A DNA stretch of 64,000 nt, from contig CAVPSB010000049.1 in the NCBI GenBank assembly GCA_963708025.1, positions 96,001 through 160,000 on the forward strand, given 5' to 3'. A model generated the notes under the pieces. The model did not search any database and was not told the origin of the DNA. It was given only the letters and a program-made list of their open reading frames with translations. The translations under genes were made by a program, and so were the position numbers. The DNA comes from an uncultured Candidatus Rokubacteria bacterium. GTDB taxonomy: Bacteria > Methylomirabilota > Methylomirabilia > Rokubacteriales > DASRDR01. Positions 11,788 through 61,034 of the stretch are shown piece by piece (position 1 is the first letter of the stretch; each line of letters starts with the position of its first letter).

Positions 11788-13545
11788 TCAAAAGCCGGTC
11801 TGGGACTTGGCGGCCTTGGCCTTCGCTTCCTTGTTCGGCTTCTCCAGCAACATGTCTTTGTTGGCGCCGCCCGCCGGCACCATCGGGAAGCAGTACTCGT
11901 CCTTGTCCACCATGACGTCGACCACCACCGGCCCCGGCGTGGCAAAGGCCTTCTCCAGCGCCGGCACCACCTCGTTCGGCTTGGAGGCCCGGATGCCGAC
12001 CGCCCCGTACGCCTCGGCCAGCTTGACGAAGTCCGGGCTGGCCGACAGGTCGATCGAGCAGAACCGGCCGCCGTAGATGATGTCCTGCCACTGGCGGACC
12101 ATCCCGTGGCCGCCGTTGTTGATGATCACGGTCTTGATCGGGAGCTGGTTCTCGACCACCGTGGCCAGCTCCTGGGAGTTCATGACGAAGCTGCCGTCGC
12201 CGTCGATCAGGACGACCAGCCGGTCGGGCCGGCCGACCTGGGCCCCCATCGCCGCCGGCAGCCCGTAGCCCATGGTGCCCAGGCCACCCGAGGTCAGCCA
12301 GTGGCGTGGGTGGCGGAAGCGATAGTGCTGGGCGGCCCACATCTGGTGCTGACCCACCCCGGTCACGATGATCGCCTCGCCGCGCGTGAGGTTCGACACC
12401 TCCTCGACGACGTACTGGGGCTTGATCAGCTCGTCGTCCCAGTCGTAGCGGAACGGATGCTTCGTCTGCCAGGCCAGGATCTGCTTGAGCCACGAATCCC
12501 GCGCTTCCCGCACCGCGGCGCTCGGCTCGGCGGCCCCCTCCTCGAGGAGGTGCTCCTTCAGCTTGGCCAGTACGCGCCGGCAGTCTCCCACGATCGGGAT
12601 GTGGACCTTGATGTTCTTCGAGATCGAGGACGGGTCGATGTCGATGTGGACGATCTCCGCCTGGGGGGCGAAGAACTCGACCTTGCCGGTCACGCGATCG
12701 TCGAAGCGGGCGCCCACCGCGATGAGCACGTCGGAGTTGTAGACCGCCATGTTGGGGGCGTAGCCCCCGTGCATGCCGAGCATCCCCATCGAGAGCGGGT
12801 GGTCGGAGGGGAAGGCGCCCATCGCCATGACGGTCGTGGTGACCGGGACCCGCGTGAGCTGGGCGACCTCGGCCAGCTCGGGGGCGGCGTCCGAGGCGAT
12901 GACGCCCCCGCCGACGTAGAGGACGGGGCGCTTCGCCCGCATGATCGCCCGGGCGGCTTTGCGGATCTGACCCGCGTGCCCCTCGTACGTCGGGTTGTAC
13001 GAGCGGAGGTGGACGGACTCGGGGTACTCGAATTCGGCCTGCTTGATCAGGATGTCCTTCGGCAGGTCGACGTGGACCGGCCCCGGTCGGCCGGTGGCGG
13101 CGACGTAGAAGGCCTCCTTGATGACCGGGGCGATGTCCTTGGTGTCCTTCACCAGGAAGTTGTGCTTGGTGCACGGCCGCGTGATGCCGACGTTGTCCGC
13201 CTCCTGGAAGGCGTCGTTCCCGATCAGGTGGGTGGGGACCTGGCCGGTGAAGGCGACGATCGGCATCGAGTCCATGTAGGCGTCCTGGAGGGCGGTCACC
13301 AGGTTCGTGGCCGCCGGGCCCGACGTCACCATGCACACGCCGACCTTGCCCGAGACGCGGGCGTAGCCCTCGGCGGCGTGGCCGGCGGCGGCCTCCTGGC
13401 GGCACAGGACGTGGCGCAGGGGCCCCGGGAAGTCGTAGAGCGCGTCGTAGATGGGCAGGACGGCTCCGCCGGGGAGGCCGAACACCACGTCCACGCCTTC
13501 ACGCTTGAGCGACTCGAGAACGATCCGGGCGCCGCTGAATTTCAT
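11788..13545 (-). CDS. ilvB: Acetolactate synthase large subunit
   Basis: GLPGGA, TSGPAATN, GARFDDRVTG, GQHQMW and GDGSF TPP motif. Confidence 0.97.
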   Translation of the reverse strand: MKFSGARIVLESLKREGVDVVFGLPGGAVLPIYDALYDFPGPLRHVLCRQEAAAGHAAEGYARVSGKVGVCMVTSGPAATNLVTALQDAYMDSMPIVAFTGQVPTHLIGNDAFQEADNVGITRPCTKHNFLVKDTKDIAPVIKEAFYVAATGRPGPVHVDLPKDILIKQAEFEYPESVHLRSYNPTYEGHAGQIRKAARAIMRAKRPVLYVGGGVIASDAAPELAEVAQLTRVPVTTTVMAMGAFPSDHPLSMGMLGMHGGYAPNMAVYNSDVLIAVGARFDDRVTGKVEFFAPQAEIVHIDIDPSSISKNIKVHIPIVGDCRRVLAKLKEHLLEEGAAEPSAAVREARDSWLKQILAWQTKHPFRYDWDDELIKPQYVVEEVSNLTRGEAIIVTGVGQHQMWAAQHYRFRHPRHWLTSGGLGTMGYGLPAAMGAQVGRPDRLVVLIDGDGSFVMNSQELATVVENQLPIKTVIINNGGHGMVRQWQDIIYGGRFCSIDLSASPDFVKLAEAYGAVGIRASKPNEVVPALEKAFATPGPVVVDVMVDKDEYCFPMVPAGGANKDMLLEKPNKEAKAKAAKSQTGF

Positions 13546-13593
13546 GTCTCGCTCCTACCTCTGCTCCGAATGAAGGCGGATGACGTCCGCCAC

Positions 13594-14491
13594 CTACAGG
13601 AGCCCCGCCGTGGCCAGGATCTCCGTGATCTCCTCGATCGCGTCCCCGTCGGGAACGGGCAGCGGCATGCGGGGCAGACCGCCGTAGTACCCCAGGAGAT
13701 CCTGGGCGGCCTTCAGGCCCCCGATCCCGTACCGCCCGCTGATGCCGGTCGCCAGCGGGCTCAGCCGGTAGACGATCTCGCGCGCCTCGCCCCACTGGCC
13801 GGCCCGGGCCAGGCGCCAGATCTCGCAGCACTCGCGGGGCGCCACGTTGGCCACCGCCAGGATCCCGCCGGCCGCGCCCAGCAGGAGCGCCGGCAGGAAG
13901 GCGATCGGCGAGCCGACCAGGACCTGGAACGTCTTCGGGGTCAGCCGCATCATCTCGGCCGCCTGGGGAACGTTGCCCGAGCTGTCCTTGATCCCGCGGA
14001 TGTTCGGGTGCTCGGCCAGCCTGGCGACGAGGTCGGGCTCCAGGTTGATCCCGGTGTTGGCCGGGAAGTTGTAGAGGAGCACCGGGACCGGCGAGGCGTC
14101 CGCGACCGCCCGGTAGTGCCGGATGAGGGCCGGCGGCTTCATCATCCCCTTGTAGTAGCTCGGGGTGATGATGATCACCGCGTCCGCCCCCAGCTCGGCC
14201 GCGCGGCGGGACAGCCGGATCGCGGCGCCGGTCGAACTCTCCCCCGGTGCCCGCGACCAGCTGCCGGGACCGCGGGATCTCGGCCCGGGCCGTCGCGATG
14301 ACCCGCTCCTTTTCGGCCTCGGAGAGGAGCGGGAACTCGCCGGTCGAGCCCAGCACCACGTAGCCGGCCAGCGGGTACTCGTCGAGACGGCGAAGGTTCG
14401 CGGCCAGCTTGTCGTGGGCCACGTGGTCGTCGCGGAAGGGGGTCAGGACCGGGGGATAGACACCCTCGAAGCTCGGCGCTCGGCTATCCAT
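13594..14491 (-). CDS. DapA-family aldolase, 4-hydroxy-2-oxoglutarate aldolase (HOGA)-like; 1-bp frameshift at about 14235
   Basis: GVYPPVLTPF, GSTGE, TPSYYKGMM, LYNFPANTG and Schiff-base GIKDSSG, split over two frames. Confidence 0.85.
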
Positions 14492-17312
14492 GGGCGCCCC
14501 GCTCCTTGATGCGGGCCTGGGCCGCTGCCAGCCGGGCGGTCGGGATCTGATACGGGGAGCACGAAACGTACGTCATACCCGCCCGGTGACAGAACTCCAC
14601 GGAAGACGGCTCGCCTCCGTGCTCACCGCAGATCCCGACCTTCAGATCGGGCCGTGTGCGCCGCCCGCGCTCGATGCCGATCCGGACCAGCTCGCCGACG
14701 CCCTCCTGGTCGAGGACCCGGAACGGATCGCGTGGCAACAGCTCCTTCTCCAGATAGAGCGGGAGGAACTTGCCCACGTCGTCGCGACTGTAGCCGTAGG
14801 TCAGCTGGGTGAGATCGTTGGTCCCGAACGAGAAGAAGGCCGCCTCGTGGGCGATCTGGTCGGCGACCAGGACCGCCCGCGGCACCTCGATCATCGTCCC
14901 GGTGGTATACGGGACCCGCACCCCCGTCTCGGCGAGGACCGCCTCGGCCGTCCGCTCGGTCAACTCCCGCGTCAATCGCATCTCGCCCACCGTGCCCGTC
15001 AGCGGGATCATGACCTCGGGCTCCACCGGAACGCCCTGCGTCACGAGCGCGGCGGCCGCCTCGAAGATGGCCCGGACCTGCATCTCGTAGATCTCGGGGT
15101 AGGTGATGCCCATCCGGCAGCCCCGGTTCCCGAGCATCGGATTGGCCTCCTGGAGGCTCCGCACGCTGACCAGATCCTCCTTCAGCTCATCGATCCGCGT
15201 CTGCACACGCGCCAGCTCGGTCTCGAGTGGAGCCCTGGCCATGACGCGCTGGAAGCCGGGGTCCAGCGCGAGCTGCGTCCGGACGCTCTGGTCAACGTGC
15301 TCCAGCCCGGGGCGCCGCTCCCGCAGGTCGCCCAGCTCTTCCAGCAGCTTGGCCTCCTTGGGCAGGAACTCGTGGAGGGGCGGATCCAGCAGGCGGATCG
15401 TCACCGGACGCCCGGCCATCGTCCGGAAGATGCCGACGAAGTCCTCGCGCTGCATCGGGAGGAGCTGGTCGAGCGCCCGCTGCCGGGTCTCCCGGTCCCG
15501 GGCCTGGATCATGTTGCGGACGATGGGAATCCGCTCCTCCGGCTTGAAGAACATGTGCTCGGTGCGACAGAGGCCGATCCCCTGGGCGCCGAAAGCCAGC
15601 GCGGTGGCCGAGTCGCCCGGCGTGTCCGCGTTGGCCCGCACCCCGAGGGTCCGCACCTCGTCCGCCCAACCGAGGATCGTGCTCCAGTAGCCGAAGAGCG
15701 GCGATTCCTCGGGCCGGAGCGACTTGGTGAGCTGGACCTGCACGATCTCCGACGGCTTGGTCGGCAGCTCGCCCAGGATCACCTCGCCGGTTTCGCCGTC
15801 GAGGGCGATCACGTCCCCCTGGCGGACCCGGAGGTCCCCGCGACGAAACTCGTGCGCCTCCTCGTCCACCGTGATGTCACCACAGCCGACCACGCAGCAT
15901 TTCCCCATGCCGCGACCAACGACCGCCGCGTGGGAGGTGAGGCCGCCTCGTGACGTCAGGATGCCGCCGGCCGCATACATCCCGGCCACGTCCTCCGGCG
16001 AGGTCTCGGCCCGGACCAGGATCACCTTCACGCCGCGGTCCGCCCACTCCTCGGCGTCGTCGGCCGTGAAGACGACCTTGCCGACGCAGGCCCCGGGGGC
16101 GGCCGGGAGACCCTTCGCGATCAGCCGCCCGCCCTCGATGGCACGAGCCTTGGCCTTGAGGTCGAAGCCGGGGTGCAGGAGCTGGTCGAGTTGCCCAGGG
16201 TCGACCCTCAGCAGGGCCAGGTCCCGATCGATCAGCCCTTCTTTCACCATCTCCACGGCGATCCGCACCGCGGCCGCCGCCGTCCGCTTCCCGCGCCGGG
16301 TCTGCAGGATGTACAGCGTCCCTTCCTGGATCGTGAACTCGATGTCGAGCATGTCCCGGTAGTGGCGCTCGAGCGTCTGGTACGTCGCCTCCAGCTCCTG
16401 GTACACGCCCGGCATCCGGTCACGCAGGTTGGCGATCGGCTGGGGGGTCCGGATGCCGGCCACCACGTCCTCGCCCTGCGCGTTGACCAGGAACTCGCCG
16501 AAGAACCGCCGCTCCCCGGTCGAGGGATCCCGGGTGAACGCGACGCCGGTCCCCGAACTGTCCCCGAGATTGCCGAAGACCATCGTCTGGACGGTGACCG
16601 CGGTCCCCCAGTCGTTCGGGATTCCGTGGATCCGGCGGTAGTCCTCGGCCTTCTTCGAGAACCAGGAGCCAAAGACCGCGCGAATCGCCAGGTTGAGCTG
16701 CAGCTGCGGCTCTTGCGGGAAGGGCTCGCCGGCCTCCTCGTAGAGGCCCTTGTAGGCGGAGACGAGCCCGCGCAGCGCAGGCGCTGGCAGCTCGGCGTCG
16801 GACGCGGCTCCCATTCGCACCTTCGCCGCGTCGAGCAGGTCGTCGAAGAGACGGCGGTTGATCCCGAGGACGACGTCGCCGAACATCGTGAGGAAGCGGC
16901 GATAGCAGTCCCAGGCGAAGCGCTCGTTTCCGGTCCGCTGGGCGAGCCCCTCGACGGTCTTGTCGTTCAGGCCGAGGTTCAGGACCGTTTCCATCATGCC
17001 CGGCATCGAGACCCGCGCGCCGGAACGGACGGAAACGAGGAGCGGGCGGTCGGGATCGCCGAGCCGGAGGCCGACCAGACTCTCGAGGCGTCCGAGATGC
17101 TCCTGCACCTCGTCCCACAGGCCGTCGGGGTCGCGACGTCCGAGGCGCTCGTACTCCGTCCACGCCTCGGTCGTGATGGTGAGCCCGGGCGGGACCCGGA
17201 TTCCCAGGTTCGTCATCTCGGCCAGCTCGCACCCCTTGCCGCCGAGGAGGTTCCTGAGCTGGCTCGAACCTTCGGCCCGCCCGCCTCCGAAAAAGTAGAC
17301 AAGCTTCCTCAT
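14484..17312 (-). CDS. ppdK: Pyruvate, phosphate dikinase
   Basis: LLGGKG, SVRSGARVSMPGMM, GGLTSHAAVV phospho-His, CRTEHMF and FGTNDLTQ. Confidence 0.97.
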   Translation of the reverse strand: MRKLVYFFGGGRAEGSSQLRNLLGGKGCELAEMTNLGIRVPPGLTITTEAWTEYERLGRRDPDGLWDEVQEHLGRLESLVGLRLGDPDRPLLVSVRSGARVSMPGMMETVLNLGLNDKTVEGLAQRTGNERFAWDCYRRFLTMFGDVVLGINRRLFDDLLDAAKVRMGAASDAELPAPALRGLVSAYKGLYEEAGEPFPQEPQLQLNLAIRAVFGSWFSKKAEDYRRIHGIPNDWGTAVTVQTMVFGNLGDSSGTGVAFTRDPSTGERRFFGEFLVNAQGEDVVAGIRTPQPIANLRDRMPGVYQELEATYQTLERHYRDMLDIEFTIQEGTLYILQTRRGKRTAAAAVRIAVEMVKEGLIDRDLALLRVDPGQLDQLLHPGFDLKAKARAIEGGRLIAKGLPAAPGACVGKVVFTADDAEEWADRGVKVILVRAETSPEDVAGMYAAGGILTSRGGLTSHAAVVGRGMGKCCVVGCGDITVDEEAHEFRRGDLRVRQGDVIALDGETGEVILGELPTKPSEIVQVQLTKSLRPEESPLFGYWSTILGWADEVRTLGVRANADTPGDSATALAFGAQGIGLCRTEHMFFKPEERIPIVRNMIQARDRETRQRALDQLLPMQREDFVGIFRTMAGRPVTIRLLDPPLHEFLPKEAKLLEELGDLRERRPGLEHVDQSVRTQLALDPGFQRVMARAPLETELARVQTRIDELKEDLVSVRSLQEANPMLGNRGCRMGITYPEIYEMQVRAIFEAAAALVTQGVPVEPEVMIPLTGTVGEMRLTRELTERTAEAVLAETGVRVPYTTGTMIEVPRAVLVADQIAHEAAFFSFGTNDLTQLTYGYSRDDVGKFLPLYLEKELLPRDPFRVLDQEGVGELVRIGIERGRRTRPDLKVGICGEHGGEPSSVEFCHRAGMTYVSCSPYQIPTARLAAAQARIKERGAHG

Positions 17313-17494
17313 GGTCTCGGCTCTCCACCCAGATTGGCAGAAAAGTCTTTCCAACGTATCAGTTAAGGCGCTGTTCTGTCAAGGCAAAGCCGGTTCTACG
17401 GTGCCCGCTGAACCAGTCCGACGAGTAGGGAGACCGAGGCGAGGCGCGACGGCTCGAGGGCGAGCCGATCCGGCGGCTCCCATTCCCACCGCCC

Positions 17495-17629
17495 GTCGGC
17501 TTCTCGCAACCCTCGGGCTCTGGCCACGCGGCCGTGGCGTTCCGCTCCGCGCCCCGGCCCAAAGGCCGAAAAATAGTCGCGGCCTCCGAGGGGGGACTCG
17601 TGGGCGTCTTCCAAGACCCCCCGATGTTC
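17495..17629 (-). repeat. Repeat family B, long form, abutting the FadR-regulator stop codon
   Basis: TCGGCTTCTCGCAAC...GGCCACGCGGCC...GGCGTTCCGCT shared with the copies at 49004 and 55667. Confidence 0.8.
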
Positions 17630-18424
17630 TCAGCGCGGGGGCCGGGGACGGCGGGAGCGGCGCGCTCGCGACGAGACCGGGGCCTCGTCGCCCCGGGCTT
17701 CGCCCTCCACGCCCTCGACCGGCGTCTCGCGTCCGACGACGAGCTGCTCGACGGCGATCAGATGCGCGAGCATGGCCCGCCGCGCGGCTTCCTCGTCACG
17801 GGCCTGAATGGCGGCGAGGACTTGCCGGTGATCCTGGTGGGAGCGCTCCGGCCGGCCGGGGATGTGGAGCGATTCCTCTCGCGTCTGGGTGAGCAGGTCC
17901 ATGAGGGCCGTCACGATGCGGGTGATCGCCCGGTTGTGGGCGGAGTGGGCGATGGCGGTGTGGAACGCGGCGTCCTGTGCCAGCCCCGTCCGGCCCGCCG
18001 CGATCTCCCGGGCCTGCTCGTCCAGGATGCGTCCCAGCTCGAGCGCCTCCTCGTGGGTCGCCCGGCGCGCCGCCAGCCCGGCGATGGGCGGCTCCAGGAG
18101 GCGCCGCGCCTCGTAGAGGTCGGCGATCCCCTCACGCTGGTTCAGGATGACCAGGGCCAGCGGCTCGACGAGCGATTCGACCGAGATGCTGCGGACGAAG
18201 GCTCCCTCGCCGGCCCGGATCTCGACCAGCCCGGTGCTCTCCAGCGCCCGCAAGGCTTCCCGGACCGACGTCCGGCTCACCCGGAAGCGCTCGGCGAGGT
18301 CGCGCTCGGGCGGGAGGCGATCGCCCGACTTGAGCTGACCGTCGGCGATCAGGCCGCGGATCTGCCGGACGATCTCCGCGTAGATGCGGGTGGACTTGAC
18401 GGGCTCGACGCTCGGCCAGCTCAT
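17630..18424 (-). CDS. FadR/GntR-family transcriptional regulator (FCD domain)
   Basis: GDRLPPERDLAERFRVSRTSVREAL winged helix; DAAFH...AHN...DH FCD motif. Confidence 0.93.
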   Translation of the reverse strand: MSWPSVEPVKSTRIYAEIVRQIRGLIADGQLKSGDRLPPERDLAERFRVSRTSVREALRALESTGLVEIRAGEGAFVRSISVESLVEPLALVILNQREGIADLYEARRLLEPPIAGLAARRATHEEALELGRILDEQAREIAAGRTGLAQDAAFHTAIAHSAHNRAITRIVTALMDLLTQTREESLHIPGRPERSHQDHRQVLAAIQARDEEAARRAMLAHLIAVEQLVVGRETPVEGVEGEARGDEAPVSSRARRSRRPRPPR

Positions 18425-18475
18425 GACGTGAGGGAGTATACCGGCGCCGGCCGGCGCGGCGCAAACGCGGCCGGG

Positions 18476-19189
18476 CTACTTCCGCGACGCGGCCGGACGA
18501 TGGCGAGCCGCCGTTCGCCGGGCGACCCACAGGCGCCCGGCGAGGACCACCGCGACCCCGAGGGTGGCCGGGAGCACCCAGTGCAGGGCGTCGGCCGCCC
18601 CCTCGCCCATCCAGCGCCGGAGGACGTGGTCCTTGAGGATCATCTCGCCGGCCACCCAGCCGAGGATCCCGGCGCCCAGGTCCACGATCCAGGTGAACCG
18701 GCCCATCAGCCGGGCGAGGATACCGCTGCCCCAGATCACGATCGGGATCGAGAGCCCGACTCCGAAGACGACGAGCAGCATGTCGCCGTGGGCGGCGGCG
18801 GCGACGGCCAGGACGTTGTCCAGGCTCATGATCACGTCGGCCACGATGATGATCCAGATGGCCTCGAACAGTGAGGTCCCGTGGCGCACGGTGTGGTCAC
18901 CGGCCTCCTGGGTGACCAGCTTCACCGCGATCCAGAGCAGCAGCCCGCCCCCCACCGCCTGGAGGAGCGGAATCCGCAGCAGGAACGTGATGATGCCGAT
19001 GAACAGGATCCGGAGGGCCACGGCGCCGAAGGTGCCCCAGAGGCGGCCCTGCCATTGCTGGCGCTTCGGCAGGTTCCGGACGGCGAGCGCGATGACCAGC
19101 GCGTTGTCGCCGGCCAGCGTGAGGTCGAGGATGACGATGGCGATCCAGCGGGCCCAGAACTCGGGGTCGGCCAGCTCGGCGAAGTTCAT
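18476..19189 (-). CDS. TerC/YjbE-family membrane protein
   Basis: DLTLAGDNALVIA and ADVIMSLDNVLAVA motifs. Confidence 0.92.
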   Translation of the reverse strand: MNFAELADPEFWARWIAIVILDLTLAGDNALVIALAVRNLPKRQQWQGRLWGTFGAVALRILFIGIITFLLRIPLLQAVGGGLLLWIAVKLVTQEAGDHTVRHGTSLFEAIWIIIVADVIMSLDNVLAVAAAAHGDMLLVVFGVGLSIPIVIWGSGILARLMGRFTWIVDLGAGILGWVAGEMILKDHVLRRWMGEGAADALHWVLPATLGVAVVLAGRLWVARRTAARHRPAASRK

Positions 19190-19301
19190 CGGGCTACGCC
19201 GGGCCAACGCGTGACACGTTCACGGCGACGGGGCCGGCTCGGCGGACGGGGTGGCGGCACGCCCCGATGATCGGCATGCCGCGCCACCGGAGGGCTCCGC
19301 C

Positions 19302-20825
19302 TCAATGTCGTTCGGAGGAGACGACGGACCCCGGCAGGGCCCGGAGCCGGCGCACCACCGGCCCCAGCACGGGCAGCGCGAACAGCACGAGCGCCACCAG
19401 GGTGATGGCGGCCGAGATCGGGCTCTGAAAGAAGATGAGCAGCGAGCCCTGCGACATGATCAGGCTCTGACGGAGCGCGCTCTCGGCCAGGTCGCCGAGG
19501 ACGAGGGCCAGGACCAGCGGCGCCAGCGGGTAGTCGAGCTTCTTGAACACGTAGCCCAGCAGGCCGAAGCCGAGCATGTACCAGACGTCGAGCATGCTGT
19601 TGCTCACCGCGTAGGCCCCGATCGCGCACACGAAGACGATGAGCGGCGTCAGGATCGCGAACGGCAGCCTCAGGATGGCGGCGAAGGCGGGGACGAAGGC
19701 CAGGACCATCACCACGCCGATGACGTTGCCCGTGTACATGCTGGCGATGAGGCCCCAGACGAAGTCCGGCTTCTCGATGAAGAGCATGGGCCCCGGCTGG
19801 AGACCCCAGATCAGGAGCCCCCCGAGCATGACGGCCGCCGTCGGCGAGCCCGGGATGCCGAGCGTGATCATCGGGAGCATGGCCGCCACGCCGGCCGCGT
19901 GGGCGGCCGTCTCGGGGGCGACCACCCCTTCCAGCACGCCGGTCCCGAACTTCTCGGGGTGCCGGGAGAACCTCCGGGCGAAGCCGTAGCTCATGAACGA
20001 GGCCGGGGTGGCGCCGCCCGGCTTGAAGCCCATCCAGAACCCGATCAGCGCGCTCCGGAGGAACGTCTTCCAGTAGCCCGCCAGCTCGCGCCACGTCTTC
20101 AGCATCTCGCGGAACCGGACCCGCGGCGTGATGCCCCGGAACTCGAGCCCCTCCTCGACGGTCAGGAGGATCTCACCCAGCCCGAAGAGGCCGATGACCG
20201 CGACGATGAACGAGAAGCCCCGCATCAGCTCGATGGAGCCGAAGGTCATCCGCAGCTTGCCGGTCACGACGTCGAGCCCGACCGCCGCCAGGATGAAGCC
20301 GATGAGGATCGAGACGAGGGACTTCACGGGGTTCCCGCCACCCAGCCCGATGAAGCTGGAGAAGGTCAGGAGCTGGATGGCGAAGAACTCGGGCGGGCCG
20401 AACTTGAGGGCCAGCTCGGCCAGCGGCAGGGCGAAGAACGAGACCAGGACGATGGCGAACGCCGCGCCCACGAACGAGGACGTGAAGGCCGCGGTGAGGG
20501 CCTCGCCCCCCCGGCCCTGCTTGGCCAGCGGGTAGCCGTCGAGCGTGGTGGCCACCGACCACGGCTCGCCCGGGATGTTGAACAGGATCGAGGTGATCGC
20601 CCCGCCGAAGAGGGCGCCCCAGTAGATGCAGGTCAGCAGGATGATCGCCGAGGTAGGGGGCATCGTGAAGGTCAGGGGCAGCAGGATGGCCACGCCGTTG
20701 GCGCCGCCCAGCCCCGGGAGCACGCCGATGATCGTGCCGAGAGTGATCCCGATCACCGCCATCAGGAGGTTGAACGGGGTGATCGCGATCTGAAAGCCGA
20801 GGAGGAGGTGCTCGATGCCCCCCAT
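19302..20825 (-). CDS. tctA: Tripartite tricarboxylate transporter large permease
   Basis: GVLPGLG, NIPGEP, GVVAPE and TLGIPGS repeated motifs. Confidence 0.95.
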   Translation of the reverse strand: MGGIEHLLLGFQIAITPFNLLMAVIGITLGTIIGVLPGLGGANGVAILLPLTFTMPPTSAIILLTCIYWGALFGGAITSILFNIPGEPWSVATTLDGYPLAKQGRGGEALTAAFTSSFVGAAFAIVLVSFFALPLAELALKFGPPEFFAIQLLTFSSFIGLGGGNPVKSLVSILIGFILAAVGLDVVTGKLRMTFGSIELMRGFSFIVAVIGLFGLGEILLTVEEGLEFRGITPRVRFREMLKTWRELAGYWKTFLRSALIGFWMGFKPGGATPASFMSYGFARRFSRHPEKFGTGVLEGVVAPETAAHAAGVAAMLPMITLGIPGSPTAAVMLGGLLIWGLQPGPMLFIEKPDFVWGLIASMYTGNVIGVVMVLAFVPAFAAILRLPFAILTPLIVFVCAIGAYAVSNSMLDVWYMLGFGLLGYVFKKLDYPLAPLVLALVLGDLAESALRQSLIMSQGSLLIFFQSPISAAITLVALVLFALPVLGPVVRRLRALPGSVVSSERH

Positions 20826-20881
20826 CACGCCCCAGTTCCCGCGCCCTTCCGGGAAGCGGGGACAGAACCAGGATCAGCCAC

Positions 20882-21355
20882 TCAGTATCCGAAATAGGCT
20901 TCGAGGGGGCCCTTGGGCATCGGCACCAGGAACCACACCTCGAAGATCAGAAAGGTGACAACGGGGATCCCAACGCTCAGGAGGATAATCAGGCCCCAGG
21001 AGTGCCGCCCGAGCCAGCGCATGTAGGCGGCCAGGTAGAGCCCTCCGGCGACGTAGAGCCCGAGGGGATACACCAGCAGCACCATGCCCGCCGCCGGCAG
21101 CGCAACCTTGGCCACCGGCGCCAGCTGACCCGGCGCCAGGAACGGCTTCCGGTAGAGGGGGAGGTCGGGCTGGAGCGCCGCCTGCCCCAGGACGACGGCG
21201 GAGGAAAGCCCGAGGCCCAGGCCGAGGTAGAACACGAAGAAGCCCGACTGGGGGCCGTCCGTGCTCCAGCCGATCCCCAGACGCAGCCCTTCGGCGATGA
21301 CCACGATCGCCCCGGCGAGCAGGACGATCGCGCAGACGACGTCAGCCCGGCGCAT
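20882..21355 (-). CDS. tctB: Tripartite tricarboxylate transporter small subunit
   Basis: About four TM helices, GPQSGFF and VPMPKG; lies between tctC and tctA. Confidence 0.88.
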   Translation of the reverse strand: MRRADVVCAIVLLAGAIVVIAEGLRLGIGWSTDGPQSGFFVFYLGLGLGLSSAVVLGQAALQPDLPLYRKPFLAPGQLAPVAKVALPAAGMVLLVYPLGLYVAGGLYLAAYMRWLGRHSWGLIILLSVGIPVVTFLIFEVWFLVPMPKGPLEAYFGY

Positions 21356-21394
21356 GATGACTCGGACCGCTTCGCTCTCGCCGCCGGCGGGCGG

Positions 21395-22375
21395 CTACTT
21401 GAGGAGCCCGCCCTTCGTCATCAACTCCCGGTGGAGCCCCTCGGCCCCTTCCAGCCACTGCACGAACTCCGGCCCCGTCTGCCAGGACGGCTTCAGCGCG
21501 CCCTGCTCGAGGTAGTCCTTGAACTCGGGAGTCTCGTAGACCTTCTTCAGCAGGCCCTGATAGAACGCCACCGCGTCGGGCGGCATCTTCGGGGCCCCGA
21601 AGATCCCGCGCAGCATCAGGTACTCGATGTTGGCCCCGAGCGCCTCCTTGACCGTCGGGACGTCACCCCATCCCTTGGCCGACAGCCGGTCGCCGTCGAA
21701 CACTGCCAGCGGCCGGACGCGATTCGCCTTCCAGTGTCCGGCGCACTCGATGGGGTTGTTCACCGTCGAATCGATGTGCTTCCCCACCAGGTTCGCGCAG
21801 ACCTCCCCGCCACCCTTGAAGGGGACGTAGATGAACTTGAGCCCGAGGGCCTGCTCGAGCTGGATCGTGATGATCTGGTCTTCCTGGGCGGTGCCGGTCC
21901 CCCCCATCTTGAACGTGCTGGCCTTGGCCTTCACCGCGTCAACGTACTCCTTGGCCGTCTTGTAGGGCGTCTCGGCGTTCACCCACAGGATGAACTCGTC
22001 CAGCGCGAGCCGGGCCACCGGGGTCAGGTCCTTCCAGTTGAACGGCACCCCGGTGTGGAGGGGCGTCGTGAAGAGGTTGGAGAGCGTGATGATGATGGTG
22101 TGGGCATCGCCCTCCTTGGCCTTGACGTGGATGAACCCTTCGGCTCCGGCGCCGCCCGGCTTGTTGACGACGATGAGCGGCCGCGGCGAGAGCTTGTACT
22201 TGTCGACGAGCGGCGCGATGATCCGCGCCATCTGGTCGGCGCCGCCGCCGGTGCCCGCCGGCACGATGAACTCGACCGGCTTCGTGGGCTCCCAAGCCAG
22301 GGCCGAGCCTCCGGCGACCGTGAGCCCGACACAGACGAGGAGCGCGATCCCGAGACAGAGCGCCACGTTGCGCAT
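21395..22375 (-). CDS. tctC: Tripartite tricarboxylate transporter substrate-binding protein (Bug family)
   Basis: Signal peptide; PAGTGGGADQMAR, NKPGGAG and VPFKGGG. Confidence 0.93.
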   Translation of the reverse strand: MRNVALCLGIALLVCVGLTVAGGSALAWEPTKPVEFIVPAGTGGGADQMARIIAPLVDKYKLSPRPLIVVNKPGGAGAEGFIHVKAKEGDAHTIIITLSNLFTTPLHTGVPFNWKDLTPVARLALDEFILWVNAETPYKTAKEYVDAVKAKASTFKMGGTGTAQEDQIITIQLEQALGLKFIYVPFKGGGEVCANLVGKHIDSTVNNPIECAGHWKANRVRPLAVFDGDRLSAKGWGDVPTVKEALGANIEYLMLRGIFGAPKMPPDAVAFYQGLLKKVYETPEFKDYLEQGALKPSWQTGPEFVQWLEGAEGLHRELMTKGGLLK

Positions 22376-22470
22376 CGCGACACCTCCCGCGGTTGGCGCG
22401 GTTGGAGAGTGGAGGAAGGGGGAGAGTGTCCCCCTCCCTCGGGTAACCTCGGTCCCGCCGGAAAGTTCCC

Positions 22471-22562
22471 TCAGTTTGGGACCTCCCGCCCACCCCCCCA
22501 GCCCCCCTCCCCCACCCACCGGGGGGAGGGGGGAGCCGGAGGTCCCATTCCTTCACACACTC
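22471..22562 (-). repeat. Repeat family A (about 92 bp, G/C-tract hairpin), copy 1
   Basis: Near-identical to units at 26701, 32621-32905, 50464 and 60946; flanked by TGAG on the minus strand. Confidence 0.9.
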
Positions 22563-23579
22563 TCAGTGCTTGCCCTCGACGTCCTTCCTGAAGGCGACGA
22601 CACCGGGCAGCTCCCACTTGTCCCACATCTCGTCGACCTTCCGCTGGAAGTAGACGAGGTCCTCCTCGATGAAGTGGGCGAAGCGGCCCTGCTTCAGGAG
22701 GTACTCCCGGGCCGGCTTGCGCGGGCGGCCCTCCACGATGGCCTTGGTCTTCCCGTAGTAGCGGACGACGCCGTCCTCCACCTCGTACAGGGGGAAGATG
22801 CCCGTCTCGATGGCCAGCTCGCCCAGCTCGTGGGAGAGCATCGGGTCGTAGTCCCAGCCCTTGGGGCACGGGTCGAGGGAGTGGATGAAGGTCGGGCCGC
22901 CGATGGTCAGCGCCTTGCGGACCTTGTTCATCATCTCGACCGCGTAGGACGCGCACACGGTGGCGACGTAGCGGCACTCCGGATGGCCGGCGGCCAGCAT
23001 GCCGGCCACGTTCTTCTTCCAGCGGGTGTGGATGAGCCGCTTGACCACGCCCGGGGGGCTGAAGGTCGTGTGAGCCCCGTACGGGGTGAGGCCGGACAGC
23101 TGGATGTCGGTGTTGGCGTACGACTCGTTGTCGTAGAGGAGGATCAGCGAGTTGTACTCCTTGTGGGTCAGGGTCGCGGAGATGGCGGCCAGGCCCATGT
23201 CGGCGCCGCCGCCGTCGCCGCAGAAGGCGATGACGTTGATGGGCTCGGTCTTCATCTTACCCTTGGACATGAGGGACTTGAGGCCGGCGGCGGTGCCGAG
23301 GGCCGCCGAGCCGGAGGAGCCGAGCTGCGTGTGCATCCAGGGCACCACCCAGGGGGTGGAGTAGTACGTCGTGTTGGCGACGTACATGCAGCCGGTCGAT
23401 CCCAGCACGATCGTCCGGGGGCCGGCCGCCTTGATCATCAGCTTCATGACCAGGGCCGACTCGCAGCCCTGGCAGGTCCGGTGACCCGAGCTGAAGTACT
23501 CCTCGAGCGTGACCTTCTTGACGCCCTTGAAGGGCTGGAGCACCTGGGTGGCGTTCGTGAACGTGGTTGTCTCGGCCAT
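22563..23579 (-). CDS. 2-oxoacid:ferredoxin oxidoreductase beta subunit, oxalate oxidoreductase-like
   Basis: GHRTCQGC, TGCMYVANT, GDGG TPP motif, YDNESYANT and CPKGW. Confidence 0.92.
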   Translation of the reverse strand: MAETTTFTNATQVLQPFKGVKKVTLEEYFSSGHRTCQGCESALVMKLMIKAAGPRTIVLGSTGCMYVANTTYYSTPWVVPWMHTQLGSSGSAALGTAAGLKSLMSKGKMKTEPINVIAFCGDGGGADMGLAAISATLTHKEYNSLILLYDNESYANTDIQLSGLTPYGAHTTFSPPGVVKRLIHTRWKKNVAGMLAAGHPECRYVATVCASYAVEMMNKVRKALTIGGPTFIHSLDPCPKGWDYDPMLSHELGELAIETGIFPLYEVEDGVVRYYGKTKAIVEGRPRKPAREYLLKQGRFAHFIEEDLVYFQRKVDEMWDKWELPGVVAFRKDVEGKH

Positions 23580-23597
23580 CGCTGGTCTCCTTGTCCC

Positions 23598-24833
23598 CTA
23601 CTCGCGCACCCCGAGCCAGTGGGTCGGCTGGGCCGCCCGGCCGGCGTCGGCCGCCTTGAAACAGATGTCGGTCGCCTTGTACACGTCGTTCAGGGTGACT
23701 TCGCGGCCGCCCAGCCCGCAGATGAAGCCGATGAGCGGGGGTCGATGCTCGGCGTTGTAGAGCGTGGCCCGGACTTCGGTCGCGACGACCCCGGAGCCGA
23801 ACGGGGACCCGAACGAGTAGTCGCGGTCGATGACCCCGATCGCCTTCGCCTTGGCGAGCGCATGCGCGAGCTGACGATACGGGAACGGCCGGAACCAGCG
23901 GAGTCGGATCAGCCCGACCTTCTTGCCGTCGGCCCGCATCTTCCGGATCGCGACCTTGACGGGGAGGGACAGCGTCCCCATGCCGATGAGGATCACCTCG
24001 GCATCCTCCGTCATGTACTCCTCGAACCACGGATTCTCGGGCCCGCGGCCGAAGACGCGGCGGAAGTCGGCGTAGGCCTCCTCGATCACCGTGTAGGCGC
24101 GCTCGGTGGCCGCGTTGTTCTGCCGGCGGATCTCGATGACCCAGTCCTCGTTGACCTGGGGCGCCACCGTGATCGGGTTGTCGGGGTGGAGCTGGAGGTC
24201 GCCGCGGTTGTAGGCGGGCAGGAACTGGTCCACCCATTCCCGGGGTGGCACACGGGTCAGCGCCTGGGAGTGGGTGAGGAAGGCGCCGTCGGCCGAGATG
24301 GCGATGGGCAGGAAGACCCGCCGGTCCTCGGCCACCCGGTAGGCGATCAGGGTCGTGTCGAAGGCCTCCTGCGAGGTGTCGATCCAGCAGAGCAGCCACC
24401 CGAGGTCCCGGACGAACAGGGCGTCGTTGTGCTCCACGCCGAAGGCCCCGGGGTCGTCGAGGGCGCGGTTGCCGACAAGGGCCACCATCGGGATCCGCAG
24501 CGCCGGCGTCACCACCAGGCACTCCATCGCGTAGGCCCAGCCGACCCCGGAAGACCCGCAGAACACGCGAGCCCCGACGGCGGAGGCATGCTTGACGATC
24601 TCGAACTGGCTGTGCTCGCCCTCGGCGACGATGTACTCGGCCGTGAGCTTGCCGTTGGCGATCTTCTTGGCGATCGCCTGCATGACGGTGTCGTAAGGCC
24701 GGATCGGGTAGGCGGTGACGACGTCGATGTCGGCGAGCGTCAAGGCCTCGGCTACGGCCTCGCTGCCGGAGATCAGCATCTCCTTCTCTTCCAGGACCGC
24801 GGCGCCGGGCGCCGGGGTGGTCACGACTGCCAT
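23598..24833 (-). CDS. 2-oxoacid:ferredoxin oxidoreductase alpha subunit with YPIRP motif (OOR-like)
   Basis: AYPIRPY, EGEHS, GSSGVG, NRALDDPGAFGVEH and GLGGRE; RBS GGAGG before ATG 24833. Confidence 0.92.
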   Translation of the reverse strand: MAVVTTPAPGAAVLEEKEMLISGSEAVAEALTLADIDVVTAYPIRPYDTVMQAIAKKIANGKLTAEYIVAEGEHSQFEIVKHASAVGARVFCGSSGVGWAYAMECLVVTPALRIPMVALVGNRALDDPGAFGVEHNDALFVRDLGWLLCWIDTSQEAFDTTLIAYRVAEDRRVFLPIAISADGAFLTHSQALTRVPPREWVDQFLPAYNRGDLQLHPDNPITVAPQVNEDWVIEIRRQNNAATERAYTVIEEAYADFRRVFGRGPENPWFEEYMTEDAEVILIGMGTLSLPVKVAIRKMRADGKKVGLIRLRWFRPFPYRQLAHALAKAKAIGVIDRDYSFGSPFGSGVVATEVRATLYNAEHRPPLIGFICGLGGREVTLNDVYKATDICFKAADAGRAAQPTHWLGVRE

Positions 24834-24858
24834 CTGGATTCCTCCTCGGTCTGGCGAG

Positions 24859-26139
24859 CTATGCGCCCGGGGCTTCCGCGACGCCCGTGATGATCGACGT
24901 GGACGACTGGTGCATGTGGACCCCGGGCGGCAGCCCCTTCTCCGCCGCGTTCTCGCCCGGAATGCCCTCGGTGACCGGGAGGCCGCCCAGCTCCAGCGGG
25001 CCGCCCGCCAGCTCCTCCTCGTACTGTCCGCGGTACCGGAAGCCGTGAGAGCGGATGGTGTGGACCTTGTCCCGGCTCTTCTCCTGGAGCCAGACCCGGT
25101 AGGCATCCTTGTCCTTCCGCCACATCTCCCACTGGCTCGCGTTGTCCTCGAAGACCGCCTCGTTCACCATCGTGATGCAGTTGTGCACCGGGCAGACCGC
25201 CTCGCAGACGCCGCACCCGCAGCAGGACTCCATGTTGGCGTCGTAGAGCCCGTCGGGCATCACGTCGAAGCAGCTGTCCGGGCACTGGAGCCAGCAGAGC
25301 GTGCATTTCACGCAGGTCTCGAAGTCGATGACCGGCCGCATCGTGCGGCTGGAGAACTTCTTGAAAACCTGGCTCCGCTCCGGCCGGTACCCCTTGCCGC
25401 CCTCGATCGGCTTCCCGATCGGCAGCGACGGGATGGACACGCCCTCGCGCATCTCCCACCAGCGCGGCAGCTCGAAGGAGTAGGGGGTCTCTGGATTGCC
25501 CTCGGTGACCGGAACCGGCCGGCCCTCGATCCGCTCGTAGGCCTTGCTGGCGGATTCCACCTTCAGCTCGGACCCCCACTCGGCCTCCCGGATCGCCTGG
25601 CCCACCGCCTCGACGCTGAGGAACTGCGGGGCGATCTTCGCCAGGGCCCCCAGGAGCCGGACCTCCGTGTGGTCCTCCTTGTAGACCCACAGACCCGAGA
25701 ATGACGCCTTGCCCTGCAGGATCCACAGGTTGTAGACGGAGTCCTTCTTGTGGATGTCCCGGAGGAGGTCGGCCGGCCGCTGGGTCGAGATCACCAGCAG
25801 GTGGCCATTCGGGTGGAGCAGGCGGTTGATCGGCTGGAGGCCATACCAGGCCCAGGATTCCACCCCCTTGGCCAGGGTGTCGTCCACGCAGATGGTGACG
25901 TGGAGCTCCTTGGGCTCGTAGCGGGCCATGTGCTGCTCGAGCTCTTCCTTGGTATCGGCGACGATGGCGAAGTCCTTGGCCGGGACGCCGTTGCGCTGCG
26001 GGCTGTCCCCGTAGCGGCCGAAGGCGATGCCCCACCGCCCCGCCTTCCGGGCCGAGAGGACGATCCCCCGGGTGATGCGGGCCGCCAGGTTCTTCTGGAA
26101 GATCCCGCGGTAGACCACCTCACAGATCAAGTGCGCCAT
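24859..26139 (-). CDS. 2-oxoacid:ferredoxin oxidoreductase fused gamma/ferredoxin (delta) subunit
   Basis: N-terminal gamma-like domain; CVKCTLCWLQCP and CCGCGVCEAVCP 2x[4Fe-4S] motifs. Confidence 0.9.
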   Translation of the reverse strand: MAHLICEVVYRGIFQKNLAARITRGIVLSARKAGRWGIAFGRYGDSPQRNGVPAKDFAIVADTKEELEQHMARYEPKELHVTICVDDTLAKGVESWAWYGLQPINRLLHPNGHLLVISTQRPADLLRDIHKKDSVYNLWILQGKASFSGLWVYKEDHTEVRLLGALAKIAPQFLSVEAVGQAIREAEWGSELKVESASKAYERIEGRPVPVTEGNPETPYSFELPRWWEMREGVSIPSLPIGKPIEGGKGYRPERSQVFKKFSSRTMRPVIDFETCVKCTLCWLQCPDSCFDVMPDGLYDANMESCCGCGVCEAVCPVHNCITMVNEAVFEDNASQWEMWRKDKDAYRVWLQEKSRDKVHTIRSHGFRYRGQYEEELAGGPLELGGLPVTEGIPGENAAEKGLPPGVHMHQSSTSIITGVAEAPGA

Positions 26140-26202
26140 TCCGGGCCTCCTACCTCACCTCACCGGGACAGATTGCGAGCGCAGACCTCCGTCGAGGTAT
26201 GC

Positions 26203-26239
26203 TGGTCAGACCATAGGACAGCCCCGCCGATCCTGTCAA
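26203..26239 (-). promoter_or_regulatory. Sigma70-type promoter with overlapping FadR-type palindromic operator
   Basis: Minus-strand TTGACA (26234-26239), 18-bp spacer, TATGGT (26210-26215); palindrome TGGTCAGACCA at 26203-26213. Confidence 0.72.
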
Positions 26240-26273
26240 GACCGACTTTGTCGGGCTCAATCCGGCCGCGGGG

Positions 26274-26672
26274 TTACCCCATCACGGCGACACGCTCCGG
26301 CTGGATCTTGTAGATCACCCGCACCTCGCCGGGGCGCCGGTACGGATACCGGTCCTGTCCGAGGTACTTCTTGGCCAGCGCGTCGATGTGGTCGTCGGCC
26401 CCCTGCTCGGTCATCTCCACCACGCGCCCTCGCACCGCGAGGTGCCGGTAGGGGTTGTCGGGGTCGAGGATCGCCAGCGCGACCTTCGGTGTCCGCCGCA
26501 TGTTGCGGTCCTTCACGCGGCCCTTCGCCGAGTTGATCCGGATGTGACTGCCGTCCCAGTCGAACCAGACCGGGGTCACCTGGGGGCTCCCGTCCGGCAT
26601 GACGGTGGCGAGGTTCGCGAAGGCCTTCTTCTGGAAGAGGTCCTTGAAGTTGTCTGGTACCGAGGCTGCCAT
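26274..26672 (-). CDS. PPOX-class (putative F420-dependent) oxidoreductase
   Basis: LATVMPDGSPQVTPVW, KDRNMRRTPKVAL and YLGQDRYP. Confidence 0.88.
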   Translation of the reverse strand: MAASVPDNFKDLFQKKAFANLATVMPDGSPQVTPVWFDWDGSHIRINSAKGRVKDRNMRRTPKVALAILDPDNPYRHLAVRGRVVEMTEQGADDHIDALAKKYLGQDRYPYRRPGEVRVIYKIQPERVAVMG

Positions 26673-26700
26673 CCATCCTCCTCTGGTTGTTCTCTGCTTG

Positions 26701-26798
26701 TTCGGGACGATCGAGACCTCCCGCCCACCCCCCCAGCCCCCCTCCCCCACCCACCGGGGGGGAGGGGGAGCCGGAGGACTCCATTCCTTGACACACGC
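26701..26798 (-). repeat. Repeat family A, copy 2
   Basis: Same core as 22471-22562; abuts the stop codon at 26799. Confidence 0.88.
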
Positions 26799-27995
26799 TC
26801 AGTCTCCGGTGGCGCCGAGTGCGCTCTCGAGGGCTTCGCGCAGATCCTCTACATCTTCGATCCCCACCGACATCCGCACAAGCCCCGGGTCGATCCCGAG
26901 CTTGGCCTGCTCCTCGGCTGAGAGCGGGCGGTGGGAGGTCCGGCTCGGATAGCTCCAGGTCGTCGTCACATCCCCGAAGCTCGGCGCGAACTCGATGAGG
27001 CGAAGCGCTCGGAAGAAGCGCTCCACGGCCGGGGCGCCGCCCCGCAACTCGAAGGCCAGCATCCCGCCGAAGCCGGCCGGGAACAGCTTGGCGGCCAGGG
27101 CGTGCTGGGGATGCGTGGGGAGGCCCGGGTAGTGGACGCGGCGAACCTCGTCACGGCCGGCCAGGAATCGCGCCAGGGCGAGCGCGTTGGCGGAGTGCCG
27201 CTCCATCCGGAGGGCGAGCGTGCGCACGCCGCGGAGCGTGAGCCAGGCATCGAACGGGCCCAGGTTGAGCCCGATTCGAACCGCCTGGGCCCGGGCGCCG
27301 GCGATCAGTGGCGCCGATCCGGCCAGCACCCCGGCGGTGACGTCGCCGTGCCCGCTCAGGTACTTGGTCGCGCTGTGGTGCACCACCGCGGCGCCGTGCT
27401 CGATCGGTCGCAGGAGTGCTGGCGTGGAGAAAGTCGCGTCGACGAGGAGGTGGAGGCCCCGGCGGCGCGCCACCTCGGCCAGCCCCGGGAGATCGGCCAG
27501 TCGGAGCAGCGGGTTCGACACGGCCTCGACGAAGATCGCCCGCGTCGCCGGCGTCAGGGCCGCCTCCACGGCCGCCGCCTCCGAGCCGTCCGTGAACGAG
27601 ACCGCGATGCCCCAGCGGGGCGCCTGCTCGCGAAGGAGGGCCGTCGTCGAGCCGTAGAGGTCCCGCCCGGCCACCAGATGGTCGCCCGGCCCGAGCGTGG
27701 CCAGCAGCATCGCCGTCAGCGCGCCCATGCCGGACGCGGTCACCAGGGCGGCCTCGGCCTCCTCCAGCCCGGCCAGCGTCGCCTCCAGCATGGTGTGGTT
27801 CGGGGTGCCGAATCGCCCGTAGACGTAGCCGGGGCGCTGGCCTTCCCAGACCGCCTCCACCTCCGGGAGATTCTCGAACGTGTAGACGTTGGCGAGGTAG
27901 ATCGGCGGGGACAGCGGCCGCGATACCGACGCGGGGATGGGAACCGCCCGGGCGGCCCGCGTCGCGAAGCGCGCCCCTGACTTTTCCTTGGACAT
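26799..27995 (-). CDS. Cys/Met metabolism PLP-dependent enzyme (cystathionine gamma-synthase/lyase family)
   Basis: YGRFGTP, ASGMGA, HSATKYLSGHGD PLP-lysine and SVGIED. Confidence 0.92.
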   Translation of the reverse strand: MSKEKSGARFATRAARAVPIPASVSRPLSPPIYLANVYTFENLPEVEAVWEGQRPGYVYGRFGTPNHTMLEATLAGLEEAEAALVTASGMGALTAMLLATLGPGDHLVAGRDLYGSTTALLREQAPRWGIAVSFTDGSEAAAVEAALTPATRAIFVEAVSNPLLRLADLPGLAEVARRRGLHLLVDATFSTPALLRPIEHGAAVVHHSATKYLSGHGDVTAGVLAGSAPLIAGARAQAVRIGLNLGPFDAWLTLRGVRTLALRMERHSANALALARFLAGRDEVRRVHYPGLPTHPQHALAAKLFPAGFGGMLAFELRGGAPAVERFFRALRLIEFAPSFGDVTTTWSYPSRTSHRPLSAEEQAKLGIDPGLVRMSVGIEDVEDLREALESALGATGD

Positions 27996-32624: not shown

Positions 32625-32905
32625 TTCGGGACCTCCCGCCCACCCCCCCAACCCCCCTCCCCCACCCACTGGGGGGAGGGGGGAGTCGGACGACCCATTC
32701 CTTCACACGCTCTCAGTTCGGGACCTCCCGCCCACCCGATCCTTCGGACGGCCTTCGGCCTTTGGCGACGGCCTTCGGCCCCCCTCCCCTACCGACGCTT
32801 TCTTCACGCTCTCGGTTCGGGACCTCCCGCCTACCCCCCCAACCCCCCTCCCCCACCCACTGGGGGGGAGGGGGGAGCCGGAGAACCCCATTCCTTCACA
32901 CGCTC
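32621..32905 (-). repeat. Repeat family A, three tandem units (middle unit carries nested 18-bp modules)
   Basis: Units at about 32621-32712, 32713-32811 and 32812-32905. Confidence 0.9.
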
Positions 32906-33469: not shown

Positions 33470-33523
33470 CGACCTACCCTGCCGTCCCCACGCCGTGCAG
33501 TCTCCTTCGCCCGCTACTATACA

Positions 33524-60863: not shown

Positions 60864-60945
60864 TTGGCTGGGGCCGGCGTCGGGGACCCCGGTGGCGGCG
60901 AGATCCGAGGCGGCCCCGCCCGGGGCTCCGGGCCGGGCCGCTCGC

Positions 60946-61034
60946 TCAGTTCGGGACCTCCCCACCCCCCCAACCCCCCTCCCCCACCCACCGGGGGGAG
61001 GGGGGAGCCGGAGGACGCCATTCCTTCAGACCCT
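60946..61034 (-). repeat. Repeat family A, abutting the SCP2 stop codon
   Basis: Same core as the other family A copies. Confidence 0.88.

Follow-up and report, generated by a model that had tools for sequence, protein, structure and literature searches.

An oxalate oxidoreductase-like enzyme clustered with a tripartite tricarboxylate transporter and a GntR-type regulator in Rokubacteria: a candidate oxalate catabolic system

Among the carbon and metal-chelating compounds that plants and fungi release, oxalate is a major one, and its turnover by bacteria is usually followed through the genes frc and oxc. Here, we report an eight-gene cluster from an uncultured Candidatus Rokubacteria bacterium (GenBank assembly GCA_963708025.1), encoding a three-subunit enzyme resembling the oxalate oxidoreductase (OOR) of Moorella thermoacetica, a tripartite tricarboxylate transporter (TTT; TctCBA), a TerC-family membrane protein, and a GntR-type regulator. 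The cluster lies at positions 17630 to 26239 of a 64,000-nucleotide (nt) stretch of contig CAVPSB010000049.1 (positions 96,001 to 160,000, forward strand), hereafter the window. By its sequence, the enzyme is a member of an uncharacterized sister group (type B) of the one known oxalate:ferredoxin oxidoreductase, and the cluster probably encodes an oxalate:ferredoxin oxidoreductase that is inducible by oxalate, independent of CoA, and supplied with oxalate by a TTT importer. New from the window are the alternation of TTT and OxlT-type transporters beside the enzyme, an enzyme-linked TTT clade, a conserved operator, and a genome with no other recognizable oxalate route. A first-pass annotation, made from the sequence alone, had called the cluster a candidate undescribed organic-acid catabolic system; a literature search found nothing in print on the type-B clade or on oxalate oxidoreductase in Rokubacteria, and "undescribed" holds for the searchable literature.

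Enzyme clade and active site

Alpha subunits carrying the motif YPIRP form a clade that splits into type A, which is Moorella-like, and type B, the sister clade holding the window enzyme. A quick IQ-TREE search over 58 alpha subunits, with SH-aLRT as the only support measure, gave 99% for the YPIRP clade, 100% for type A, and 99% for type B with the window; an intermediate representative (P0132) joined type B (support, 92). The window enzyme thus stands outside the Moorella-type clade and in its sister, inside the shared OOR-type clade and not with ordinary pyruvate:ferredoxin oxidoreductases (PFORs). The NCBIfam OOR models (NF045790 to NF045792) were the best matches of all three subunits, and a type-A control (P0134) passed the OOR cut-off at 583 bits and aligned to OOR chain 5c4i_A with 511.7 bits.

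Among solved structures, the closest chain to the alpha subunit was M. thermoacetica OOR 5c4i_A (1.2e-97, versus 3.8e-63 for the best PFOR, the four-subunit 9bt4_B), and the closest to beta was OOR 5c4i_C (2.9e-84, versus 1.6e-57 for the best PFOR match); gamma/delta matched the OOR delta chain 5c4i_B by sequence (3.5e-18). The arginine of YPIRP (alpha Arg45) is the counterpart of OOR Arg31, and the motif occurred in the window and in every one of the 165 sequences of types A and B that were collected. The second substrate arginine was also kept, with alpha Arg123 aligned to OOR Arg109. The roles of OOR Arg31 and Asp116 were taken from passages of PMC5020499, in which the switch-loop Asp116 is said to matter for the OOR mechanism. 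In the residue-by-residue alignment to 5c4i_A, Moorella RTLDPPGDF (residues 109 to 117) stood against RALDDPGAF; the extended loop reads NRALDDPGAF in the window (N122 to A130 and the following F, numbering of the 411-amino-acid [aa] protein) and DRTLDPPGDF in Moorella. The loop therefore lacks the OOR aspartate, Asp116 being Ala130, and Pro113, three residues before Asp116, is Asp127. Its sequence was fixed in each clade (DRTLDPPGDF in 83/83 type-A and NR(A/T)LDDPGAF in 82/82 type-B sequences, window included).

The beta subunit carries GHRTC, TGCMYVANT, and DNESYANT, and its Asp158, which follows the Asn of DNESYANT by two residues, replaces OOR Gly145 in the alignment; cysteine motifs for all three Fe-S clusters were intact. 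At a threshold of at least 95% within each clade, types A and B had different fixed residues at 68 positions of alpha and 54 of beta, the Asp158/Gly145 position among the latter. The first-pass annotation had listed YPIRP and the three beta motifs and had read the loop as having lost Asp116 to Ala and gained an Asp three residues earlier. Every motif was located in the alpha and beta translations, the alignment to 5c4i_A bore out the loop reading, and the alteration proved invariant across type B.

The first 250 residues of gamma/delta were without a Pfam domain match. The AlphaFold2 model of this subunit (23 sequences; pLDDT, 74) had OOR chain 5c4i_E as its best fold match (E value, 3e-19) and reached a TM score of 0.79 (normalized by target) against the PorC gamma subunit 2raa, recovering the OOR-type fold; because the model matches both the OOR delta chain and PorC gamma subunits, we read gamma/delta as a fusion of domains III and V, as in OOR. 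An extension of about 45 residues or more after the ferredoxin domain was kept in 22 type-B relatives and is absent from the Moorella chain.

Transporter slot after the beta subunit

Synteny was compared in the 80 best type-B loci from named genomes, of which 12 end too soon after the beta gene and 68 have at least 1.3 kb there. Among these 68, a major facilitator superfamily (MFS) gene of OxlT type directly followed beta in 38 and lay within 3.5 kb in 1 more, TctCBA (or TctBA) was present in 20, neither transporter was found in 9, and both were found in 0. All eight MFS proteins tested (one of them adjoining a type-A operon) passed the NCBIfam oxalate/formate antiporter model TIGR04259, with 389 to 564 bits against a cut-off of 335. 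The type-B enzyme is thus followed, in one slot, by either of two nonhomologous carboxylate importers, one of them oxalate-type; because these alternate there, the enzyme and the TTT are both likely to have oxalate as their substrate. Operons linked to a TTT occurred in Rokubacteria, Sysuimicrobiota, Myxococcota, and Bipolaricaulota. The Rokubacteria-type order was gamma/delta-alpha-beta-tctC-tctB-tctA-terC-regulator, mostly followed by ppdK (15 loci, with terC in 9; a sixteenth locus ends after beta), and in other phyla the regulator was the first gene of the cluster.

All three TTT Pfam families scored above their cut-offs, in the canonical C-B-A order, and the closest solved chain to TctC was 4x9t_A (6.4e-33, aligned over the full length). 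In FastTree trees with 9 to 10 paralogues as outgroups, taken from the window's genome only, the enzyme-linked TctC (20) and TctA (20) proteins, window included, formed one clade each with 100% local support. The window TctC was 69 to 84% identical to its counterparts in Rokubacterial operons and 36% identical to the best paralogue in its own genome. Synteny, orthologue identity, and both trees accordingly bear out the earlier proposal that the tct genes are conserved with the enzyme. The nearest relative by alpha (88% identity; locus L003, positions 12326 to 15373) has a TctC only 37% and a TctB only 43% identical to those of the window, and in the TctA tree its transporter falls with the Bipolaricaulota TTT, suggesting a transporter exchange within the enzyme-linked clade.

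No OxlT was found in the window's genome (best match 148.7 bits, against a cut-off of 335), nor were oxalyl-CoA decarboxylase (oxc; 287.6 against 739.4) and formyl-CoA transferase (frc; 193 against 504). One further match to the alpha subunit of 2-oxoacid:ferredoxin oxidoreductases (OFORs) was found in this genome, in a 1312-aa open frame of the size of a single-chain PFOR.

That the cluster encodes an ordinary CoA-dependent PFOR with the TTT genes as unrelated neighbours is highly improbable. Database names for type-B alpha relatives do read "pyruvate ferredoxin oxidoreductase alpha subunit," and PorA and PorB were strong, though second-best, matches; but their scores fell below the cut-offs (332 bits against 550, and 276 against 405), the motif is YPIRP and not YPITP, and the enzyme is placed within the OOR-type clade at 99% support. 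The separate large PFOR elsewhere in the genome, the conserved slot in which TTT and OxlT exclude each other, and the clade formed by the enzyme-linked TTT proteins also argue against it.

Distribution of type B

With an alpha match at an E value of up to 1e-140 as the threshold, type-B alpha was present in 124/201 sampled genomes of the window's phylum, one match each (120/197 without four unpublished genomes, G029, G058, G152, and G047, all positive), and in 69/104 of the high-quality ones. Besides Rokubacteria, the 80 synteny loci cover Acidobacteriota (45), Armatimonadota, Myxococcota, Sysuimicrobiota, Bacillota, Dormiibacterota, Bipolaricaulota, and Actinomycetota, whose alpha subunits were 62 to 73% identical to that of the window. 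The enzyme had been described in the first-pass annotation as an OOR-clade member outside the acetogens, and it indeed occurs in Rokubacteria and many other soil phyla. Rokubacteria-like alpha genes (81% identity) were also seen in metagenome-assembled genomes titled Nitrosocosmicus (an archaeon) and Thermodesulfobacteriota (loci L013 and L018), contigs that are probably misbinned; L018 lacks tct genes and has the regulator upstream.

Gene cluster, promoter, and regulator

All eight genes announced for the co-oriented run were present on the minus strand, each with Pfam support, in DNA of about 70% G+C (Table 1). Intergenic gaps were 18 to 94 nt, except for the 184 nt between beta and tctC. 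A TTGACA-18 nt-TATGGT promoter (26239 to 26210, minus strand) was the sole sigma-70-like site within 17300 to 26900, and the palindrome TGGTCTGACCA lies across both its -10 box and the likely start of transcription.

Table 1. Features of the cluster (positions in the window)
Feature	Position	Strand	Description
Gamma/delta fusion subunit	24859-26139	-	426 aa; OFOR domain III, 2x[4Fe-4S] ferredoxin domain V, and C-terminal extension; Pfam Fer4_21
Alpha subunit, domains I-II	23598-24833	-	411 aa; Pfam POR_N and PFOR_II
Beta subunit, thiamine pyrophosphate (TPP)-binding domain VI	22563-23579	-	338 aa; Pfam TPP_enzyme_C; proximal-cluster Cys ligands
GC-rich palindromic element, like repetitive extragenic palindromes (REP)	22470-22550	.	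In beta-tctC gap; genome-wide repeat, not operon-specific
tctC, periplasmic binding protein	21395-22375	-	326 aa; Pfam TctC (PF03401), 1.8e-30; signal-like N-terminal segment
tctB, small membrane subunit	20882-21355	-	157 aa; Pfam TctB (PF07331), 2.9e-13
tctA, large membrane subunit	19302-20828	-	508 aa; Pfam TctA (PF01970), 3.4e-150
terC, TerC/YjbE-family membrane protein	18476-19207	-	243 aa from first TTG; Pfam TerC, 3e-47
GntR regulator with FCD domain	17630-18424	-	264 aa; PF00392, 78 bits; PF07729, 94.6 bits
Promoter and operator	26203-26239	-	-35 TTGACA, 26239-26234; -10 TATGGT, 26215-26210; palindrome TGGTCTGACCA, 26213-26203

The regulator consists of a GntR winged helix and a C-terminal FCD domain, belongs to the FadR subfamily, and is most like NanR, LldR, and PdhR, while scoring below every NCBIfam equivalog cut-off. 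An Escherichia coli FadR orthologue was rejected (NF003444, 33 bits against a cut-off of 189). Of the FadR regulator and FadR-type operator in the first-pass annotation, the palindrome over the promoter and the subfamily stood, and a FadR orthologue did not. The regulator orthologue adjoined the enzyme genes in 63/80 type-B loci (upstream in 48, downstream in 15).

The palindrome is conserved. GGTCNGACC was found 45 to 100 nt upstream of gamma/delta in 16/16 Rokubacteria-type loci, and other phyla had the half-sites TGGTC and GACCA in front of the regulator gene; in regulator-first operons, TGGTC-N-GACCA or a longer-spaced form lies just past a TTGACA/TATAAT-like promoter (Acidobacteria example, TGGTCCGGTTAGCGGACCA), with a half-site spacing of 1 nt in Rokubacteria versus 8 to 9 nt in Acidobacteria. 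The palindrome count in the window was not significant (23/100 shuffles reached 2 matches), and support for the operator comes from conservation and not from rarity. Placed over the -10 box, the operator is suited to a repressor, and the regulator is presumed to act there as one. The genome has just one further exact TGGTCNGACCA site (C16:99918; around position 6918 of locus L182), between genes for a 701-aa molybdopterin oxidoreductase and a triple-GAF hybrid histidine kinase. It was treated as chance, base composition predicting several such sites in 8.2 Mb.

TerC scored 212 bits with TIGR03717 (cut-off, 134.8), and its true start is possibly a later ATG and not the first TTG. The gene was present in 9/15 Rokubacteria-type TTT loci and in 0 of the remaining loci; it is an accessory, optional gene. 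An Rfam search over 17000 to 27000 gave no match at an E value of up to 1, and thus no riboswitch before terC.

The flanks are housekeeping genes, with ppdK, ilvBHC, psd, pssA, and leuAB downstream and a PNPOx-like gene, a Cys/Met pyridoxal phosphate enzyme, and a MocR-like regulator upstream. Elsewhere in the window, an 876-aa protein (32762 to 35392, plus strand) with a 2Fe-2S ferredoxin domain and RACo linker, middle, and C-terminal domains resembles reductive activators of corrinoid proteins.

Alternative readings

Several observations weigh against an oxalate-oxidizing enzyme and an oxalate-importing TTT expressed together, and they bear on two alternatives. In the first, type B is OOR-like but acts on another substrate (glyoxylate, oxamate, mesoxalate, or a small acid with a negative charge beside the carbonyl), and the TTT imports that compound. 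Each subunit scored below its OOR cut-off (alpha, 376 against 500; beta, 334 against 590; delta, 77.5 against 230 bits), OOR Asp116 was Ala in 82/82 type-B sequences, and the switch loop and the 68 alpha and 54 beta positions are fixed differently in the two clades. Moreover, type-A and type-B gene sets stood side by side, within a few kb on one contig, in seven loci (L045, L055, L061, L167, L169, L170, and L171). This adjacency argues most strongly against the two types being simply interchangeable, and it fits paralogues that differ in substrate or partner. TctC, for its part, grouped solely with enzyme-linked copies, and its nearest solved chain, 4x9t_A, is titled uncharacterized and gives no pointer to a ligand. 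Oxalate is not known as a substrate of any TTT system, and no report of such transport was found in the literature (titles and starts of abstracts). OxlT, furthermore, is an oxalate/formate exchanger, whereas the complete oxidation of oxalate gives no formate.

Against another substrate stand the OxlT-type gene directly after beta in 38/68 loci, the passing of the oxalate/formate model by 8/8 tested proteins, the retention of both arginines suited to a dicarboxylate, and annotated flanks with no glyoxylate- or oxamate-specific genes. We regard this alternative as unlikely. Oxalate is preferred over glyoxylate or another 2-oxo-diacid because an oxalate/formate antiporter follows orthologous operons and both arginines are kept. 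The altered specificity put forward in the first-pass annotation therefore found no support as stated, nor was it contradicted; an altered mechanism, its other proposal, is plausible because the acidic residue has moved.

In the second alternative, the enzyme oxidizes oxalate and TctCBA, TerC, and the regulator form a separate transcript that imports something else, the adjacency reflecting shared regulation or ancestry. The 184-nt beta-tctC gap holds an 81-nt GC-rich palindromic repeat that forms a hairpin. Further copies (93 to 100% identical, some in tandem) lie in the window at 26715 to 26777, 32620 to 32700, 32811 to 32893, and 60945 to 61023 besides that at 22470 to 22550, and at least 50 matches to this REP-like element, or one like a miniature inverted-repeat transposable element, were found in the genome (40 of 529 first-look candidates scored). 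Relatives, too, have a GC hairpin in this gap, in many cases with a T-run behind it, and the operator was found in 0/15 of these gaps, so expression of the tct genes may depend on attenuated read-through or be separate. With the hairpin-bearing gap between beta and tctC, a single transcript for all eight genes is only a candidate. The low TctC identity (37%) in L003, the nearest relative by alpha (88%), also agrees with separate units. The opposite is suggested by the distribution of TTT (20) and OxlT (39) in one slot with both in 0 loci, by TTT-linked operons in at least four phyla whose TTT proteins group together, by the lack of another recognizable oxalate transporter in the genome, and by a scan of 17300 to 26900 that found no second promoter-like site. 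We judge this second alternative to be improbable.

Two soil runs had RNA-library contigs of close relatives (likeness, 88% or more) over 30/30 bins of 17300 to 26400, and two other runs had them over 24 and 22 of the 30 bins. The coverage speaks for the presence of the relatives' cluster sequences in RNA libraries and for nothing further, and the contigs are too short to bear on co-transcription. One contig in X2 joins 22387 to 22562, skipping the repeat, with 25 letters on one side; this is below the bridging rule, and it was left uncounted.

Proposed function and significance

As the probable reading, we infer an oxalate-responsive catabolic cluster of importer, enzyme, and repressor, in which gene content, clade membership, conserved residues, synteny, and operator conservation are observed, and substrate, reaction direction, effector, and transport are predictions. 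The FCD-GntR repressor would sit on the -10 palindrome and be released by oxalate or a metal-oxalate complex; TctC and TctBA would bring oxalate in, perhaps with high affinity; and the enzyme would burn it to CO2, presumably yielding reduced ferredoxin. The role of the absent mobile-loop aspartate would probably be taken by alpha Asp127, beta Asp158, or both. TerC, more speculatively, may export a divalent cation that entered with the oxalate.

More broadly, and tentatively, as a claim that falls somewhat short of probable, type B might comprise true oxalate:ferredoxin oxidoreductases whose catalytic acid moved from the alpha loop to beta. Paired with a dedicated TTT importer in Rokubacteria and others, or with OxlT in Acidobacteria and others, they would form a widespread soil oxalate route, independent of frc and oxc, that marker-gene surveys and annotation have missed, and oxalate would be the first C2-dicarboxylate substrate of a TTT. 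If so, much soil oxalate-degrading capacity now carries a pyruvate oxidoreductase annotation, and bacteria that are not known to be anaerobic specialists would draw low-potential electrons from the route. For an orphan TTT system, the OxlT/TctCBA swap yields a ligand prediction that can be tested, and the relocated aspartate is a natural experiment on the OOR mechanism.

Comparison with known systems

Moorella OOR (EC 1.2.7.10; PDB 5c4i, 5exd, and 5exe) shares with the window enzyme its three subunits, the gamma/delta fusion of domains III and V, a TPP-binding beta subunit with proximal-cluster Cys, both substrate arginines, and the best sequence match for all subunits. The window differs in its NRALDDPGAF loop, beta Asp158, the C-terminal extension on gamma/delta, and scores below cut-off; type-B hosts belong to soil phyla and are not acetogens, and the type-B substrate is predicted only. 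From PorABGD-type PFORs, the window differs by YPIRP in place of YPITP and by PorA/PorB scores below the cut-offs.

Type-A operons were compared in 80 loci (L094 to L173) from soil Acidobacteria and metagenomes. A regulator-like gene was found in 47, and an OxlT-type MFS gene lay 2 to 3 kb downstream of beta in 22. The fully annotated L126 encodes an FCD regulator, a Cdc48-like AAA ATPase, a separate gamma subunit, a GltD/NfnB-like flavoprotein (Fer4_20 and Pyr_redox_2), alpha, and beta, with ATPase, gamma, and flavoprotein preceding the OOR genes. L061 has the same separate gamma subunit and flavoprotein next to its type-A pair, and its Cdc48-like AAA ATPase gene stands some 7 kb off; L132, L153, and L171 (metagenome) belong to the same set of loci. 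The arrangement with a flavoprotein suggests an NAD(P)-linked form. Type A and type B thus share the YPIRP clade, a nearby FCD-GntR regulator, and, in 22/80 type-A loci, a downstream OxlT-type MFS, whereas type B has the gamma/delta fusion and is without the separate gamma subunit, AAA ATPase, and flavoprotein.

The transporter resembles TTT systems with solved TctC/Bug proteins (4x9t, 2dvz, 2qpq, and 7ndr) in its three families, C-B-A order, and full-length TctC alignment, and differs in that its copies form their own clade tied to OOR-like genes, with oxalate as the predicted ligand. In other phyla, orthologous operons have OxlT-type antiporters (TIGR04259) in the same slot, immediately behind beta; these are nonhomologous to TctCBA and were not found in the window's genome. 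With the FCD-GntR repressors of small-carboxylate catabolism (LldR, PdhR, GlcC, and NanR), the regulator shares its domain architecture, its best NCBIfam similarities, and a palindromic TGGT..ACCA-type operator over the promoter; it differs in scoring below the equivalog cut-offs and in a half-site spacing that varies by phylum.

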